DNA of 33,593 nucleotides from Bacteriophage P2. A model generated the notes under the pieces. The model saw nothing but the letters and a program-made list of their open reading frames with translations. It ran no database searches and had not been told where the DNA came from. The stretch lies in the sequence record NC_001895.1. One strand, 5' to 3'. Below, in pieces: positions 1-33,593 of this stretch. Within the stretch, counting starts at the first letter, position 1, and each line of letters opens with the position of its first letter. A program made the position numbers and the translations under genes.

Positions 1-19
1 GGCGAGGCGGGGAAAGCAC
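1..19 (+). repeat. cos: Left cohesive-end (cos) sequence; identical 19 nt recurs at 33575-33593
   Basis: Exact 19-nt identity GGCGAGGCGGGGAAAGCAC at both window termini; P2-type phages have 19-nt 5' cohesive ends. Confidence 0.8.
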
Positions 20-8922: not shown

Positions 8923-9367
8923 GTTTAAGCGTTTTGAAGACCGGCTGACCGGACTGATTGAATCGCTGTCACCGTCAGGGCGTCGGCGACTGAGTGCCGA
9001 ACTGGCGAAACGTCTGCGGCAGAGTCAGCAGCGTCGGGTGATGGCACAGAAAGCCCCGGACGGCACACCCTACGCGCCACGCCAGCAGCAGAGCGTCAGA
9101 AAAAAGACCGGTCGCGTTAAGCGAAAAATGTTTGCGAAACTTATTACCAGTCGTTTTTTGCATATCCGTGCCAGCCCGGAGCAGGCATCAATGGAATTTT
9201 ACGGCGGGAAGTCGCCGAAAATCGCCAGTGTGCATCAGTTTGGTCTGTCGGAAGAAAACCGGAAAGACGGTAAGAAAATTGATTATCCGGCGCGTCCCCT
9301 GCTCGGCTTTACCGGTGAGGATGTGCAGATGATTGAAGAGATTATCCTGGCTCACCTTGAGCGTTAG
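8915..9367 (+). CDS. S: Tail completion protein S
   Basis: 150-aa ORF overlapping the R stop; expected position and length. Confidence 0.85.
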   Translation: MNEFKRFEDRLTGLIESLSPSGRRRLSAELAKRLRQSQQRRVMAQKAPDGTPYAPRQQQSVRKKTGRVKRKMFAKLITSRFLHIRASPEQASMEFYGGKSPKIASVHQFGLSEENRKDGKKIDYPARPLLGFTGEDVQMIEEIILAHLER

Positions 9368-9396
9368 TTTTATCCAGGCAGAGGCTGATGCGCAAT

Positions 9397-9433
9397 TAAA
9401 CATTGAGCGGCCATGCTGGTCGCTCAATGTTTA
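9397..9433. terminator. Bidirectional hairpin between convergent S and the minus-strand island gene
   Basis: Perfect 13-bp inverted repeat TAAACATTGAGCG / CGCTCAATGTTTA (9397-9409 and 9421-9433) with 11-nt loop, between the S stop (9367) and the orf30 stop (9439). Confidence 0.6.
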
Positions 9434-9438
9434 GAGGT

Positions 9439-10224
9439 TTATGAGTGATTTTTATTTGATGCTTTGTATTCTAAAACCTTCTTATTGGCGTAAAAGAATT
9501 TTGTATATGACAGGAATATAACCAGACCTGAAGTGAAATAGACGAGGGATAGTATTAATAATGCTTTTTTGTGACTGTTATTATCTTTAATCTCCTGGCT
9601 TAACCATTCGGAGTCCTCCTCGTTTAGCTGTAAGAGCTTATTGCAGGCGATCTCAGGAAGTGTGTCTTTTATAAATACGTTTTGCAGTCTCTTGCAATCG
9701 GCAAGGCTATAAGTTTTATTAAATTCAACTGCTTTATTTTTGAAGGATAAAAGAACTTTGTCACTATAAACATAGTACATCATGTTTTTATATGGTATGC
9801 CTGTGGCATCCCTTACTATAACGGATTGTTCGTTGTGTATGTAACATGCGAGGAGAATGTAAAAAATACTGGCCAGAATTACAATTATTGTTTTAATTAT
9901 GTGTGGTGGTTTTGTTATGTCACCCCAGATACGAGTAAGGAAAAAATACGATGTTTTTAGTTTTCCATCAATCAGTCCCTGCTGTATCATTCTCACATTT
10001 TCAATGCCTGATACATTGATTCCGTTAATTATTTTAAATAGTTGAATGTCGCGCCACTCGCGGTCAAGTCTTTTTAATTTTTTGTCTGAATATCCAAAAT
10101 TGAAATAATGTGCAATAAGCCTCATAAGGTTACTTTTACCAAAGCTAAAAAATGCTAATACTGCAAAGCTACAAAGGAAAAAAACGATTAGCCCCCACAC
10201 ATTAGTCACATTATAGCTGACCAT
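9439..10224 (-). CDS. Low-GC accessory (moron) gene: 261-aa membrane protein with about three transmembrane helices, function unknown (P2 orf30 position)
   Basis: ATG at 10222-10224; AT-rich codon usage unlike flanking genes; hydrophobic segments VWGLIVFFLCSFAVLAFFSF, IIKTIIVILASIFYILLACYI, ALLILSLVYFTSGLVIFLSY; opposite strand to the late operons. Confidence 0.75.
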   Translation of the reverse strand: MVSYNVTNVWGLIVFFLCSFAVLAFFSFGKSNLMRLIAHYFNFGYSDKKLKRLDREWRDIQLFKIINGINVSGIENVRMIQQGLIDGKLKTSYFFLTRIWGDITKPPHIIKTIIVILASIFYILLACYIHNEQSVIVRDATGIPYKNMMYYVYSDKVLLSFKNKAVEFNKTYSLADCKRLQNVFIKDTLPEIACNKLLQLNEEDSEWLSQEIKDNNSHKKALLILSLVYFTSGLVIFLSYTKFFYANKKVLEYKASNKNHS

Positions 10225-10307
10225 TACGCTCTCCTTGAATGTTGTCTGGTAGTTCTACAAATGAATCCAGATAGCATAACTTTTATATATTGTGCAATCT
10301 CACATGC

Positions 10308-10943
10308 ATGAACACTCTCGCAAATATTCAGGAACTCGCGCGCGCACTGCGCAACATGATTCGCACTGGCATTATCGTCGAAACCGACCTTAACGCCGGT
10401 CGCTGCCGCGTGCAGACCGGCGGCATGTGCACCGACTGGCTTCAGTGGCTGACCCATCGCGCAGGACGTTCGCGCACATGGTGGGCACCTTCCGTGGGGG
10501 AACAGGTGCTGATTCTGGCCGTGGGTGGTGAACTCGACACGGCGTTCGTTCTGCCGGGGATTTATTCCGGCGATAACCCCTCGCCGTCTGTGTCGGCGGA
10601 TGCCCTGCATATCCGTTTCCCTGACGGGGCGGTGATTGAATATGAACCCGAAACCAGTGCACTCACGGTAAGCGGAATTAAAACGGCCAGCGTGACGGCT
10701 TCCGGTTCTGTTACTGCCACGGTGCCGGTGGTCATGGTGAAAGCATCAACCCGCGTCACCCTGGACACCCCGGAGGTGGTCTGCACCAACAGGCTGATTA
10801 CCGGCACGCTGGAAGTGCAGAAAGGCGGGACGATGCGCGGCAACATTGAACACACCGGCGGTGAACTCTCATCAAACGGTAAGGTACTGCATACCCATAA
10901 ACACCCCGGCGACAGCGGCGGCACAACCGGGAGTCCTTTATGA
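10308..10943 (+). CDS. V: Baseplate spike/assembly protein V
   Basis: ORF track starts at a TTG (10290); ATG at 10308 (MNTLANIQE...) gives 211 aa, matching gpV. Confidence 0.85.
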   Translation: MNTLANIQELARALRNMIRTGIIVETDLNAGRCRVQTGGMCTDWLQWLTHRAGRSRTWWAPSVGEQVLILAVGGELDTAFVLPGIYSGDNPSPSVSADALHIRFPDGAVIEYEPETSALTVSGIKTASVTASGSVTATVPVVMVKASTRVTLDTPEVVCTNRLITGTLEVQKGGTMRGNIEHTGGELSSNGKVLHTHKHPGDSGGTTGSPL

Positions 10944-28044: not shown

Positions 28045-30319
28045 AGCCTCCGGGCGTTTTGTCCCTCCGTCAGCATTTGCCGCAGGCACCGGTAAGATGT
28101 TTACCGGTGCTTATGCATGGAACGCGCCACGCGAGGCCGTCGGGCGCGAAAGACCCCTTACACGTGACGAGATGCGTCAGATGCAAGGTGTTTTATCCAC
28201 GATTAACCGCCTGCCTTACTTTTTGCGCTCGCTGTTTACTTCACGCTATGACTACATCCGGCGCAATAAAAGCCCGGTGCACGGGTTTTATTTCCTCACA
28301 TCCACTTTTCAGCGTCGTTTATGGCCGCGCATTGAGCGTGTGAATCAGCGCCATGAAATGAACACCGACGCGTCGTTGCTGTTTCTGGCAGAGCGTGACC
28401 ACTATGCGCGCCTGCCGGGAATGAATGACAAGGAGCTGAAAAAGTTTGCCGCCCGTATCTCATCGCAGCTTTTCATGATGTATGAGGAACTCAGCGATGC
28501 CTGGGTGGATGCACATGGCGAAAAAGAATCGCTGTTTACGGATGAGGCGCAGGCTCACCTCTATGGTCATGTTGCTGGCGCTGCACGTGCTTTCAATATT
28601 TCCCCGCTTTACTGGAAAAAATACCGTAAAGGACAGATGACCACGAGGCAGGCATATTCTGCCATTGCCCGTCTGTTTAACGATGAGTGGTGGACTCATC
28701 AGCTCAAAGGCCAGCGTATGCGCTGGCATGAGACGTTACTGATTGCTGTCGGGGAGGTGAATAAAGACCGTTCTCCTTATGCCAGTAAACATGCCATTCG
28801 TGATGTGCGTGCACGCCGCCAAGCAAATCTGGAATTTCTTAAATCGTGTGACCTTGAAAACAGGGAAACCGGCGAGCGCATCGACCTTATCAGTAAGGTG
28901 ATGGGCAGTATTTCTAATCCTGAAATTCGCCGGATGGAGCTGATGAACACCATTGCCGGTATTGAGCGTTACGCCGCCGCAGAGGGTGATGTGGGGATGT
29001 TTATCACGCTTACCGCGCCTTCAAAGTATCACCCGACACGTCAGGTCGGAAAAGGCGAAAGTAAAACCGTCCAGCTAAATCACGGCTGGAACGATGAGGC
29101 ATTTAATCCAAAGGATGCGCAGCGTTATCTCTGCCATATCTGGAGCCTGATGCGCACGGCATTCAAAGATAATGATTTACAGGTCTACGGTTTGCGTGTC
29201 GTCGAGCCACACCACGACGGAACGCCGCACTGGCATATGATGCTTTTTTGTAATCCACGCCAGCGTAACCAGATTATCGAAATCATGCGTCGCTATGCGC
29301 TCAAAGAGGATGGCGACGAAAGAGGAGCCGCGCGAAACCGTTTTCAGGCAAAACACCTTAACCAGGGCGGTGCTGCGGGGTATATCGCGAAATACATCTC
29401 AAAAAACATCGATGGCTATGCACTGGATGGTCAGCTCGATAACGATACCGGCAGACCGCTGAAAGACACTGCTGCGGCTGTTACCGCATGGGCGTCAACG
29501 TGGCGCATCCCACAATTTAAAACGGTTGGTCTGCCGACAATGGGGGCTTACCGTGAACTACGCAAATTGCCTCGCGGCGTCAGCATTGCTGATGAGTTTG
29601 ACGAGCGCGTCGAGGCTGCACGCGCCGCCGCAGACAGTGGTGATTTTGCGTTGTATATCAGCGCGCAGGGTGGGGCAAATGTCCCGCGCGATTGTCAGAC
29701 TGTCAGGGTCGCCCGTAGTCCGTCGGATGAGGTTAACGAGTACGAGGAAGAAGTCGAGAGAGTGGTCGGCATTTACGCGCCGCATCTCGGCGCGCGTCAT
29801 ATTCATATCACCAGAACGACGGACTGGCGCATTGTGCCGAAAGTTCCGGTCGTTGAGCCTCTGACTTTAAAAAGCGGCATCGCCGCGCCTCGGAGTCCTG
29901 TCAATAACTGTGGAAAGCTCACCGGTGGTGATACTTCGTTACCGGCTCCCACACCTTCTGAGCACGCCGCAGCAGTGCTTAATCTGGTTGATGACGGTGT
30001 TATTGAATGGAATGAACCGGAGGTCGTGAGGGCGCTCAGGGGCGCATTAAAATACGACATGAGAACGCCAAACCGTCAGCAAAGAAACGGAAGCCCGTTA
30101 AAACCGCATGAAATTGCACCATCTGCCAGACTGACCAGGTCTGAACGATTGCAGATCACCCGTATCCGCGTTGACCTTGCTCAGAACGGTATCAGGCCTC
30201 AGCGATGGGAACTTGAGGCGCTGGCGCGTGGAGCAACCGTAAATTATGACGGGAAAAAATTCACGTATCCGGTCGCTGATGAGTGGCCGGGATTCTCAAC
30301 AGTAATGGAGTGGACATGA
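28034..30319 (+). CDS. A: Rolling-circle replication initiator (HUH endonuclease family)
   Basis: ATG 28034 (MAVKAS...) gives 761 aa; HUH-like metal-binding motif PHWHMMLF and tyrosine pair in AAGYIAKYISKNIDGY. Confidence 0.85.
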   Translation: MAVKASGRFVPPSAFAAGTGKMFTGAYAWNAPREAVGRERPLTRDEMRQMQGVLSTINRLPYFLRSLFTSRYDYIRRNKSPVHGFYFLTSTFQRRLWPRIERVNQRHEMNTDASLLFLAERDHYARLPGMNDKELKKFAARISSQLFMMYEELSDAWVDAHGEKESLFTDEAQAHLYGHVAGAARAFNISPLYWKKYRKGQMTTRQAYSAIARLFNDEWWTHQLKGQRMRWHETLLIAVGEVNKDRSPYASKHAIRDVRARRQANLEFLKSCDLENRETGERIDLISKVMGSISNPEIRRMELMNTIAGIERYAAAEGDVGMFITLTAPSKYHPTRQVGKGESKTVQLNHGWNDEAFNPKDAQRYLCHIWSLMRTAFKDNDLQVYGLRVVEPHHDGTPHWHMMLFCNPRQRNQIIEIMRRYALKEDGDERGAARNRFQAKHLNQGGAAGYIAKYISKNIDGYALDGQLDNDTGRPLKDTAAAVTAWASTWRIPQFKTVGLPTMGAYRELRKLPRGVSIADEFDERVEAARAAADSGDFALYISAQGGANVPRDCQTVRVARSPSDEVNEYEEEVERVVGIYAPHLGARHIHITRTTDWRIVPKVPVVEPLTLKSGIAAPRSPVNNCGKLTGGDTSLPAPTPSEHAAAVLNLVDDGVIEWNEPEVVRALRGALKYDMRTPNRQQRNGSPLKPHEIAPSARLTRSERLQITRIRVDLAQNGIRPQRWELEALARGATVNYDGKKFTYPVADEWPGFSTVMEWT

Positions 30320-30645
30320 TGGCAAAAATTCACGAGGTAAAGCTGCACGCAAAATATTTCGACCTTGTACTGGAAGGAAAGAAACGCGCAGAGTTTCGGA
30401 AAAAAGATCGTAATTATGAGCGCGGGGACACGTTGATTTTGCATGAATGGGTGCAGGGTGTGTTTACGGGGCGAAAGGTTGAAGCCCGGATAACAGATGT
30501 TACTGACCTGTCAGACTGGCTGGAAGATTATGTCTTGCTGCACAGAATACTAGGTGAGATACTGCCGCTGACTGTCAAGCTGGCAGTATCCTCCACATTT
30601 TTTATAAATCTAAGGCGAAGAACGGTGGCAATATATTTGCTTTAA
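30316..30645 (+). CDS. ASCH/DUF3850-like small protein (orf91 position)
   Basis: ATGATG at 30316-30321 overlapping the A stop; pattern KIHEVKLHAKYFDLVLEGKKRAEFRKKDRNYERGDTLILHEW resembles ASCH/DUF3850 (PUA-like) domain proteins. Confidence 0.65.
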   Translation: MMAKIHEVKLHAKYFDLVLEGKKRAEFRKKDRNYERGDTLILHEWVQGVFTGRKVEARITDVTDLSDWLEDYVLLHRILGEILPLTVKLAVSSTFFINLRRRTVAIYLL

Positions 30646-30683
30646 ATTGTAAATAAGCAAATTATTCTAAGCCACAAATGATA

Positions 30684-31445
30684 TCAATTGAGTATCGATT
30701 TTCGTTCGAATATAACCATAACGCCAAGCGTCAAATGTAAGTCATCTATATGTGATTCGTATTCATATTGGTCAGCATCAGGAGATAGTAAATGCTCTGC
30801 TGCTGTAAAAACATCAATTGTAACAGATATATCGTCTGGAATTTCTTCATTTAATTCGGATATGTATTTTTTATATTTGTTTTTTAATTTCCTTATCATG
30901 TCTTCCTTATGGTGGATTGTAGTGCAGTAATTTTTTTTAGTTGAATCATTGTATGAATGGAATGAACAGTTTAATGCTAGGCCAAGACTTGAATTTCCTG
31001 TAGGGCCTGTGTGTTTAAAGTATTCAAGATTTCTTCTTATGTCAGAAAATAAAAGACTTTTACAGGGGGCATTTCCTTTAACTTCTATTGCACATATTGG
31101 AATGTCGAAAAATGGTCTGCTGTCCAATATGGCAATATCAATTCTGCCTGATCTTGTTGTGTTTGTGTTTTTTCTGACAGTTTTTTTTGAGAATATTTTT
31201 TGGGGGTCAGACCGTTTCGATAAAGGAACTGTTGCATTAATGAATTTATTTGTATGGTACTCAAATATAACTTTGTAATCACCATGGCGAAAAGATTTTA
31301 TTTCTAACAACGATAGACCTATAGATACGGTAGCTACATATTCAGTGTTTATTTTTGCACCAGACCTGAAATCCATTAAATAAGTTGCGTCGGCTGACTT
31401 TTTCATTCCATCTTTTACAGCTTTCACAATATCCATGTTATTCAT
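30684..31445 (-). CDS. tin: Low-GC accessory gene: 253-aa protein at the tin position (T-even phage inhibition), with a possible PD-(D/E)xK-like motif
   Basis: ATG at 31443-31445 with AGGTG RBS; AT-rich; minus strand downstream of old; motif IDIAILD...x13...EVK in residues about 101-123; gene symbol assigned from position in the P2 map. Confidence 0.75.
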   Translation of the reverse strand: MNNMDIVKAVKDGMKKSADATYLMDFRSGAKINTEYVATVSIGLSLLEIKSFRHGDYKVIFEYHTNKFINATVPLSKRSDPQKIFSKKTVRKNTNTTRSGRIDIAILDSRPFFDIPICAIEVKGNAPCKSLLFSDIRRNLEYFKHTGPTGNSSLGLALNCSFHSYNDSTKKNYCTTIHHKEDMIRKLKNKYKKYISELNEEIPDDISVTIDVFTAAEHLLSPDADQYEYESHIDDLHLTLGVMVIFERKSILN

Positions 31446-31619
31446 ATCAACACCTTTTATATTCCAGAATTATAAATCTTAATGATTGATTTGTTTGTGT
31501 GTTTAGGTTACTAGATTGACGTACTTATAGCACATTCTGATTTTGAAATCACCATCCTTGGGTAAAGCACAGCCTATCACTATTGGTTTAGTACTGTGCT
31601 GTAATAGTATCAGATTAAG

Positions 31620-33380
31620 TTAAATCCATTTTATGAAATCTTCCATTTCATCATATTTTTTTATTACTGCTCTAACATCTTTGCTTTCATCACATAAACA
31701 ATCTAAAAGACTATCCCATTCAGTTTGTTTTTTACCAAATCCATAAACAGCCTCTATATCACCGGATTTCCATATATAGATTCCGTTATCTTTCAATTTT
31801 TGATGTATTTCATGTATATGCTTTTGTGTTTTTTCATGGTTACATATTTTGATGAAGTCTTTGCTTGAAATGCTTTTGAATGACTCAAAAGTAGTAACTT
31901 TTGTATTTAAACTAAGCTCTCCTGAGTTGATTGATTCAATCAAAGCAGTCAATAGATTATCACATTCAGTACTAAGTAAGTCTTTATGCTCTGTTAATAG
32001 AATATTTGATAAGAAATCACAATCAGCTAGAATCCTTGTTTTTATGCCGATGGCATTGATGATTTGTGACATCTTAAATAAACTACCCTTACCGTCAACG
32101 GCAACAATGCAGATTTTACTCGGGTTGAGTTCATGTCCGTTAATTTTTTTATAAAGTGCATATAGAACGTTTGTCTCTGTTTTCCCTTCAACAAGCAAAA
32201 CTTCTTCAGAAAATAAAAGGTATGATGAATTAGAAAGCGTGAATGCTGAGTGCAATTGCGGTGATGAAGATTTATATAATTCTTCGATTTTTTCAGATAT
32301 AGTCTTCCTTGCTATGGTTCCATTAGAATCCTTACAAACCTGAATCGCATTTGCTGCATGCTTTGCAGAAAGCATACTGGCTGAGTGAGTTGATATTATA
32401 ACCTGATACCCTGATTCACTTAATGTGACAAGTGATTCTCTGACAGAATTAATGGCTGAAGGGTGTAAATATAACTCAGGTTCATCAATGAAAATCAAAG
32501 TGTTTGATTTTTTTGATTCGCTGTTTTCTTTTTTTATTTCGGCCAGGTATTGAATTAATGCCATTTGAATGGAACGTTGTGTTCCGTGACCAAATCGGCT
32601 GATATCTCTCATTACCGGTTCATCTTCCCGAGACTCAAAAACTTTCAGAGTGCCGGATTTAAATATCTCATCTAATGTCGGTGTGGGAAAGTGTAACTTT
32701 ACACTTACGTCAGGAAAAAATTGGTTTACTTTTTTATTTACACCTGAGTCTATTTTATTAAGGCTTTCTAATCTGTTCTCACCGTTGTGAGAAAGATATT
32801 TACCTATTTCTGATATGTTTTTTGAAAATTTTTCTTCGTGTTCTTGTTTTATTTCAGAAACAATTGCGGAAAGTATCTTTCCTATTGTGGTCGTGTTTTT
32901 GCATTTTGTTGAGTCTTCGACAGCGTCAGACATTGCAGGGATATGAATTGGTTCCGGAAATATATTGGAGATTGCACCATCTATGCCGCCAGGGTTTTTC
33001 TTCCACGTGGTACCGTCATATACATCCAGACTTTTTTTGGCTTTTCCTGTTTCCTTATTAAATTCCTGTCTTCTTGCAAAGGTAAGAGTCCCGTCAATTA
33101 TAAACGGAGCTATTTTTTGTTGATTCTCTTCTGTTAACAAAGACAGAGTATCATCTGTTATACCTTGAATAACGCCTTCAACGGATACGGGGTGTGTAGG
33201 ATCGTACACATCTGATTCTGAAATCAAAGAGCCATCTAACAGCCACTTAATTGCTAAGATAATATTTGATTTTCCTGCGTTATTATAACCAACTAAAGCA
33301 GTGAAGGGGCGCAAAATAGCCGATGTTGACTTACAAGAACGAAAGTTGCTAATTGAAACTGAAGCAAGACGTACAGTCAT
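31620..33380 (-). CDS. old: OLD-family nuclease: N-terminal ABC-type ATPase fused to C-terminal TOPRIM domain (anti-phage / overcoming lysogenisation defect)
   Basis: 586 aa; Walker A GYNNAGKSN near N-terminus; Walker B LIFIDEPELYLHP; TOPRIM-like LLVEGKTETNVL and DxD in ILADCDFLS; AT-rich; last gene before right cos. Confidence 0.85.
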   Translation of the reverse strand: MTVRLASVSISNFRSCKSTSAILRPFTALVGYNNAGKSNIILAIKWLLDGSLISESDVYDPTHPVSVEGVIQGITDDTLSLLTEENQQKIAPFIIDGTLTFARRQEFNKETGKAKKSLDVYDGTTWKKNPGGIDGAISNIFPEPIHIPAMSDAVEDSTKCKNTTTIGKILSAIVSEIKQEHEEKFSKNISEIGKYLSHNGENRLESLNKIDSGVNKKVNQFFPDVSVKLHFPTPTLDEIFKSGTLKVFESREDEPVMRDISRFGHGTQRSIQMALIQYLAEIKKENSESKKSNTLIFIDEPELYLHPSAINSVRESLVTLSESGYQVIISTHSASMLSAKHAANAIQVCKDSNGTIARKTISEKIEELYKSSSPQLHSAFTLSNSSYLLFSEEVLLVEGKTETNVLYALYKKINGHELNPSKICIVAVDGKGSLFKMSQIINAIGIKTRILADCDFLSNILLTEHKDLLSTECDNLLTALIESINSGELSLNTKVTTFESFKSISSKDFIKICNHEKTQKHIHEIHQKLKDNGIYIWKSGDIEAVYGFGKKQTEWDSLLDCLCDESKDVRAVIKKYDEMEDFIKWI

Positions 33381-33574
33381 TATTTTTCCTTAAATGTGCT
33401 ATTTGTATGCAATGAGTTCATACGAAACGCTTTTTTACATTTTATAGTCGTTGCATTCAAGGGTGCATGAGATTGCATTAAGGGAAACTGTGATATGGCT
33501 TGGCTTTTGACTGGAAATACTGATGGCTCATTAGTTTTATTAAGGTGCATTAAAACCGCCCCGTGAAGCGGGCG

Positions 33575-33593
33575 GGCGAGGCGGGGAAAGCAC
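33575..33593 (+). repeat. cos: Right cohesive-end (cos) sequence, identical to 1-19
   Basis: Exact 19-nt identity with the window start; preceded by GC-rich palindrome CCGCCC...GGGCGG at about 33557-33577. Confidence 0.8.

Follow-up and report, generated by a model that had tools for sequence, protein, structure and literature searches.

The tin-old island of bacteriophage P2, two abortive-infection genes at a cos-adjacent cargo hotspot

The DNA analysed here is a 33,593-nucleotide sequence of bacteriophage P2 (NC_001895.1; hereafter the window), and our subject is the tin-old island, a pair of genes next to its right cos end. The first and last 19 nucleotides of the window are identical (GGCGAGGCGGGGAAAGCAC) and represent the cos ends, so the window is a complete linear genome in which the cohesive ends are written at both termini. 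As proposed in the original prediction, which was made from the sequence alone, two AT-rich genes, tin and old, lie on the minus strand between A/orf91 and the right cos end, with a GC content of 0.342 in the island and 0.517 in the remaining genome (34% versus 52%). Replication gene A (PF05840) and the early operon to which it belongs are on the plus strand, so tin and old run opposite to the early operon, again as predicted (Table 1). The region is almost certainly the tin-old lysogenic-conversion island of P2, a cos-adjacent cargo hotspot between A/orf91 and Q that carries two independent abortive-infection genes. The island is already known as the textbook type example of prophage-encoded phage exclusion, which has been studied since about 1970, and its value here is that of a positive control, not of a discovery.

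Comparison with an integrated copy of the phage places the island in its genomic setting. A copy with 100% identity in Escherichia coli DA33137 is arranged in the order int, C, cox, the B-to-A genes, orf91, tin, old, Q and terminase P, with 382 bp separating old from portal gene Q. The gene order in this prophage demonstrates that the island adjoins Q across cos, bearing out the proposal that the two become neighbours on circularisation or integration of the genome. The Q open reading frame (ORF) of the window matches, in size and position, the gene annotated 'phage portal protein' beside old in DA33137.

Table 1. Coordinates of the tin-old island and associated features in the window
Feature	Position (nt)	Strand	Description
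Portal gene Q	187–1221	−	344-residue ORF; neighbour of old after circularisation or integration
orf91 (DUF3850/ASCH)	30316–30645	+	Last early-operon gene; shortened by a deletion, C-terminal tail unrelated
Variable cargo segment of the A-Q hotspot	~30563–33545		Limits from megablast flanks and the end of similarity to L-413C; AT-rich; holds tin and old
tin	30684–31445	−	253 residues; single-gene abortive-infection factor against T-even phages, predicted PD-(D/E)xK fold
old-tin intergenic region	31446–31619	−	174 bp; conserved hairpin and candidate extended −10
old	31620–33380	−	586 residues; Pfam AAA_15, AAA_21 and OLD-like_TOPRIM; PADLOC Old; identical to VOLD_BPP2
Region upstream of old	33381–33574	−	194 bp to the cos repeat; native promoter and 5′ untranslated region
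GC-rich hairpin followed by TTTT	33575–33556	−	From terminator scan; just inside right cos; largely conserved in relatives
Right cos end	33575–33593		19 nt, same as window 1–19; annotated cosR in fiAA91-ss

An exact protein look-up identified the old product as sequence-identical to UniProt VOLD_BPP2 ('Old nuclease'). Pfam matches to AAA_15 (6.9e-28), AAA_21 (8.8e-20) and SMC_N (3.7e-10), a PF20469 OLD-like_TOPRIM match (1.2e-17) spanning residues 389–455, and a full-length match to the PADLOC Old model (1.3e-214) confirm the ABC ATPase plus Toprim architecture that had been read from sequence motifs. Each of those motifs was located in the protein: Walker A (GYNNAGKSN, residues 31–39) and Walker B (LIFIDEPELYL, 295–305) in the ATPase, and VEGKTE (397–402, containing E402) and DCD (453–455, containing D453 and D455) in the Toprim domain. 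The ATPase also has an H-loop histidine, H332, within the sequence STHS, so the window protein has both of the residues reported as catalytic, H332 and E402. OLD proteins are divided into Class 1, encoded by stand-alone genes and with Old as the archetype, Class 2, which occur with a UvrD-like helicase, and Class 3, which occur with a retron reverse transcriptase (PMC10568477). With an N-terminal ABC ATPase, a C-terminal Toprim domain and a stand-alone gene, the window protein belongs to Class 1; its neighbours are tin, whose product has neither a helicase nor a reverse transcriptase domain, and cos/Q, and thus there is no UvrD-like helicase or retron reverse transcriptase beside it. Among solved structures in the Protein Data Bank (PDB), TsOLD (6P74) and several GajA entries come closest (E ~1e-10).

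The 253-residue protein, which had been assigned to the position of tin, is P2 Tin itself. It matches exactly, by protein look-up, AAD03308.1, an accession that we assign to the tin gene of GenBank AF063097, and the PADLOC Tin model (PDLC02359; 6.9e-98) covers residues 2–249, in effect its full length.

Megablast of the island against a phage collection, in which the P2 reference record is evidently not included, returned 48 related phage records; these match the flanks only (30400–30539 and 33546–33593), and the tin-old island is absent from all 48. In the same collection tblastn searches gave no match for Tin and three distant matches for Old. The first 25 kb of the window is ~96% identical, over 85–87% of its length, to many Peduovirus (P2-like) phages. 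The similarity to L-413C extends 23 bases further (30540–30562), beyond a deletion in orf91 described below, and then ends. Since homology ends at ~30562 and resumes at ~33546, the variable segment has the limits given in Table 1; the originally proposed range, 30646–33574, does hold the island, but its ends are not those of the mobile unit.

What occupies the segment differs from phage to phage. L-413C carries a single uncharacterised gene of 330 residues, Wphi and the 'Peduovirus P2' record NC_070904 carry a cytosine methylase with two or three further genes, and fiAA91-ss (NC_022750.1) carries the cytolethal distending toxin operon cdtV-ABC, so the cargo of the hotspot is not always defensive and includes virulence genes. 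The A-to-Q comparison therefore reveals variable cargo rather than conserved core genes, in agreement with the proposed accessory hotspot. Because the island is AT-rich and is replaced by other cargo in relatives, we conclude that it is horizontally acquired; its horizontal origin, the cos-spanning hotspot, tin and the OLD architecture had all been read correctly from the raw sequence. The RefSeq entry named 'Peduovirus P2' (NC_070904.1) is 33,562 bp long and has a BspRI-like methylase cassette in place of tin-old, and hence is not classical P2.

Among 5426 complete E. coli genomes tin-old is present in 17, at ≥99% identity in 14 and at ~93.5–94.6% in the other three. In E. coli VL7S7, which has one of the divergent islands (94.6% identity), two ORFs of 71 and 182 residues stand in place of an intact tin (1539–2299 of that locus); the gene has probably become a pseudogene by frameshift, and old is intact. 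Work by Odegrip in 2006 is reportedly a further source on the P2-like A-Q hotspot, listed together with the 2022 studies of Rousset and of Vassallo. In one published description the interval from gpA to gpQ, beside cos, encodes old and tin in the P2 reference genome, and the locus shows 1,650 gene arrangements among 18,150 occurrences (Rousset et al., 2022; PMC9122126); the same description of old and tin at the cos-adjacent gpA-gpQ locus is given by Vassallo et al. (2022; PMC9519451).

Of the two genes, tin offers the one forward-looking lead: the mechanism of its product rests on a single 1997 study, and the protein has no Pfam family and a predicted nuclease active site. Pfam searches at E ≤ 10 returned HSDR_N_2 only, for 2 of 20 family members (0.068). 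A HMMER scan of 1.84 billion representatives gave a family of 199 members, corresponding to no fewer than 199 clusters at the 50% identity level, and conservation was derived from an alignment of 118 full-length representatives. Seven positions alone are essentially invariant (E35, E62, D103, E121, K123, D135 and R138); D103 and E121 are invariant in all 118 representatives and K123 in 117. D103 is located on a predicted β strand (101–108) adjacent to that bearing E121-V-K123 (115–125), so that D103 and E121-x-K123 would have the classical PD-(D/E)xK arrangement, and a restriction-endonuclease-like α/β core fold is predicted for the protein.

Foldseek searches against the PDB and BFVD gave no significant match, with PD-(D/E)xK-annotated proteins recurring among the weak BFVD matches, and when PDB sequences were searched with a profile of Tin the matches did not rise above noise. 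In the literature retrieved no fold is assigned to Tin and no biochemical results on a metal-dependent phosphodiesterase activity of the protein turned up; a mention of the fold elsewhere is possible. We consider it likely that Tin has a PD-(D/E)xK fold, and judge the question of whether the predicted site is catalytically relevant to be about evenly poised; both ratings are held down by the lack of a significant Foldseek match and by the faintness of the HSDR_N_2 signal.

In the published model Tin would act by poisoning gp32, the single-stranded DNA-binding protein of T4; Tin has been reported, as cited in PMC8594841, to inhibit T4 DNA synthesis in this way, blocking T-even replication (Mosig et al., 1997). 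In the BASEL screen Tin acted against all the Tevenvirinae and against no other phages (PMC8594841). Both the reported gp32 poisoning and this spectrum, confined to Tevenvirinae and complete within them, are consistent with Tin acting purely by stoichiometric binding of gp32, without enzymatic activity, a possibility to which we give an appreciable but somewhat less than even chance. Our analysis of predicted structure and conservation, in comparison, points to Tin itself being a PD-(D/E)xK nuclease that may be catalytically active. We tentatively propose, with a confidence only a little short of even, that Tin, instead of passively poisoning gp32, founds a hitherto overlooked family of ~250-residue PD-(D/E)xK nucleases in which the invariant E35, E62, D103, E121-x-K123, D135 and R138 would be needed for defence, that gp32 or gp32-coated T-even single-stranded DNA would provide the trigger or substrate context and would not be the only target, and that the gene is an autonomous module hopping among other islands and the moron slots of P2-like prophages (A-Q, S-V and the one past the tail-fibre genes).

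The last part of this proposal refers to Tin homologs (41–55% identity) that occur in three other places, none of which includes Old: an AlpA-type island of Pectobacterium; the position just past the tail-fibre and tail-fibre-assembly genes, in a P2-like tail cluster bordering non-phage genes; and, in a P2-like prophage, the interval that separates tail gene S from spike gene V. Judging by these locations, the gene seems to hop between moron slots. P2 itself has a second AT-rich island (GC ~0.40, in an AT-rich dip at ~9000–10500) between tail genes, containing a 261-residue ORF (9439–10224, minus strand) with no Pfam or PADLOC match; by standard P2 gene order this appears to be the same S-V slot that holds the Tin homolog in the other P2-like prophage.

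For Old, the published phenotypes (lambda exclusion, killing of recBC cells and tRNA cleavage) apply directly to the window protein because its sequence is identical to that of the protein studied. Old is made constitutively in lysogens and is normally non-toxic, and turns lethal when lambda Gam or T7 gp5.9 puts RecBCD out of action (PMC12445682). Under its action DNA stays intact; what is cut is the tRNA anticodon stem, in both of its strands and following the C of a paired CNG motif, with tRNA-Thr(UGU) preferred, and cells are rescued by a phage tRNA-Thr (Govande et al., 2025; PMC12445682). The inactive mutant used in that study, H332A/E402A, maps onto residues present in the window protein. 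A July 2026 preprint describes, by cryo-electron microscopy, an Old tetramer that opens into active dimers, names as activators aberrant DNA in recB cells and hairpins of single-stranded DNA at the lambda origin, and reports that Old alone, under its native promoter on a plasmid, protects against lambda (bioRxiv 10.64898/2026.07.10.737580).

Taken together, these reports describe Old as a sensor of the ABC-ATPase type joined to a Toprim nuclease, produced constitutively and inert until triggered by inhibition of RecBCD (by lambda Gam or T7 gp5.9) or by aberrant or hairpin single-stranded DNA at a replicating phage origin. In this published scheme activated Old then cuts host tRNA anticodon stems, chiefly those of tRNA-Thr(UGU), translation stops, and the infected cell dies before the replication of a lambda-like phage. 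In an older model Old kills not by tRNA cleavage but as a 5′–3′ DNA exonuclease; although purified MBP-Old and TsOLD do degrade DNA in vitro (PMC10568477) and the Toprim fold of Old is shared with the DNA-cutting GajA, the independent preprint (bioRxiv 10.64898/2026.07.10.737580) counts against this model, which we regard as very unlikely. The codon ACA, which is read by tRNA-Thr(UGU), accounts for 17 of the 37 threonine codons in old and 10 of the 17 in tin. This usage could merely reflect AT-richness, yet may also make Old synthesis self-limiting after activation.

To mutual dependence of tin and old as a single two-gene system ('Old-Tin') we give no more than a slight chance: the genes are adjacent and co-oriented, occur together in 17 of 17 E. 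coli genomes carrying the island, were cloned jointly as 'old-tin' by Rousset et al. (PMC9122126) and are listed as the single system 'Old-tin' in one review, but Old under its native promoter suffices against lambda (bioRxiv 10.64898/2026.07.10.737580), Old and Tin assayed separately have different target spectra (PMC8594841), Tin homologs travel without Old, and the genes are 174 bp apart, with a conserved hairpin in between. A tin-old operon acting as one system was rejected on the first three of these objections, and two independent abortive-infection genes remain our reading of the island.

Independent promoters for the two genes had been proposed, in a 174-bp gap between them and in 195 bp upstream of old. 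The first length is exact, while the second is 194 bp; and the promoter of old is supported by published work, in that expression is constitutive in lysogens and the native promoter works when cloned, whereas that of tin is plausible. A σ70 consensus scan gave no minus-strand promoter match in the old-tin gap or upstream of old. Candidates picked by hand are TTGAAT-17-TAAAAA upstream of old and, upstream of tin, TGcTATAAG, a putative extended −10 with TG at 31532–31531 and TATAAG at 31529–31524, of which TGnTATAA is kept in the divergent (~93.5% identical) islands. On the minus strand just 3′ of the old stop codon is a hairpin (31566–31600) in which AGCACAG (31600–31594) pairs with CTGTGCT (31572–31566) across a ~21-nucleotide loop; divergent islands keep it, with an A-to-G change that still pairs as G-U. 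As it is not followed by a T-run, this hairpin is not a canonical terminator, and a role in processing or stability is conceivable. Judged from sequence, a separate tin promoter is plausible because both the hairpin and TGnTATAA are kept in the divergent islands, and the occurrence of Tin homologs on their own is consistent with it.

The 194 bp upstream of old is 98% conserved in islands that are otherwise ~93.5% identical. A 56-residue ORF (33550–33380, minus strand), weighed as a possible leader peptide, fills this region, its stop codon overlapping the old ATG (TAATG), and it stays open in the divergent islands; at 98% conservation the substitutions are too few to separate coding from regulatory constraint. 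The terminator-like site at the cos-proximal edge of the region (33556–33575) would shield old from late P-Q read-through in the circular or prophage form.

On the opposite side of the island, Pfam matches of orf91 to DUF3850 (1.5e-16) and ASCH (2.4e-10) cover residues 16–86 only. Alignment with L-413C, with Wphi and with an E. coli prophage that has tin-old (NCTC11476) reveals that P2 lacks ~236 bp after position 30539; its orf91 ends in ~35 codons of unrelated sequence, and relatives of full length have 147–150 residues. In RefSeq an identical prophage copy is marked as a pseudogene 'missing C-terminus'. By these comparisons P2 orf91 is a truncated deletion derivative of a DUF3850/ASCH gene.

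Comparison with known systems places both proteins and their locus among described examples. The window Old and VOLD_BPP2 are the same protein in length, domain order, the presence of H332 and E402, and genomic position, with no difference between them. GajA of Gabija (a Class 2 OLD), AriA/AriB of PARIS and the Thermus scotoductus OLD (6P74) have the combination of ABC ATPase and Toprim in common with Old. In contrast to Gabija, Old has no partner helicase, and unlike PARIS it is a single polypeptide; its similarity to GajA, PARIS and TsOLD is weak (E ~1e-10), and its reported target is tRNA anticodon stems. The window Tin is likewise sequence-identical to, and without difference from, P2 Tin (AAD03308.1; PDLC02359). 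With respect to restriction endonucleases of the BamHI/BglII/OkrAI type and to NucC, Tin is only 9–13% identical, lacks a cognate methylase and a cyclic-nucleotide sensor, and has the additional invariant residues E35, D135 and R138. The locus corresponds to the published A-Q hotspot of P2-like phages in position, in its flanks (gpA/orf91 and cos/gpQ) and in its variable cargo, with P2 tin-old as the reference occupant.

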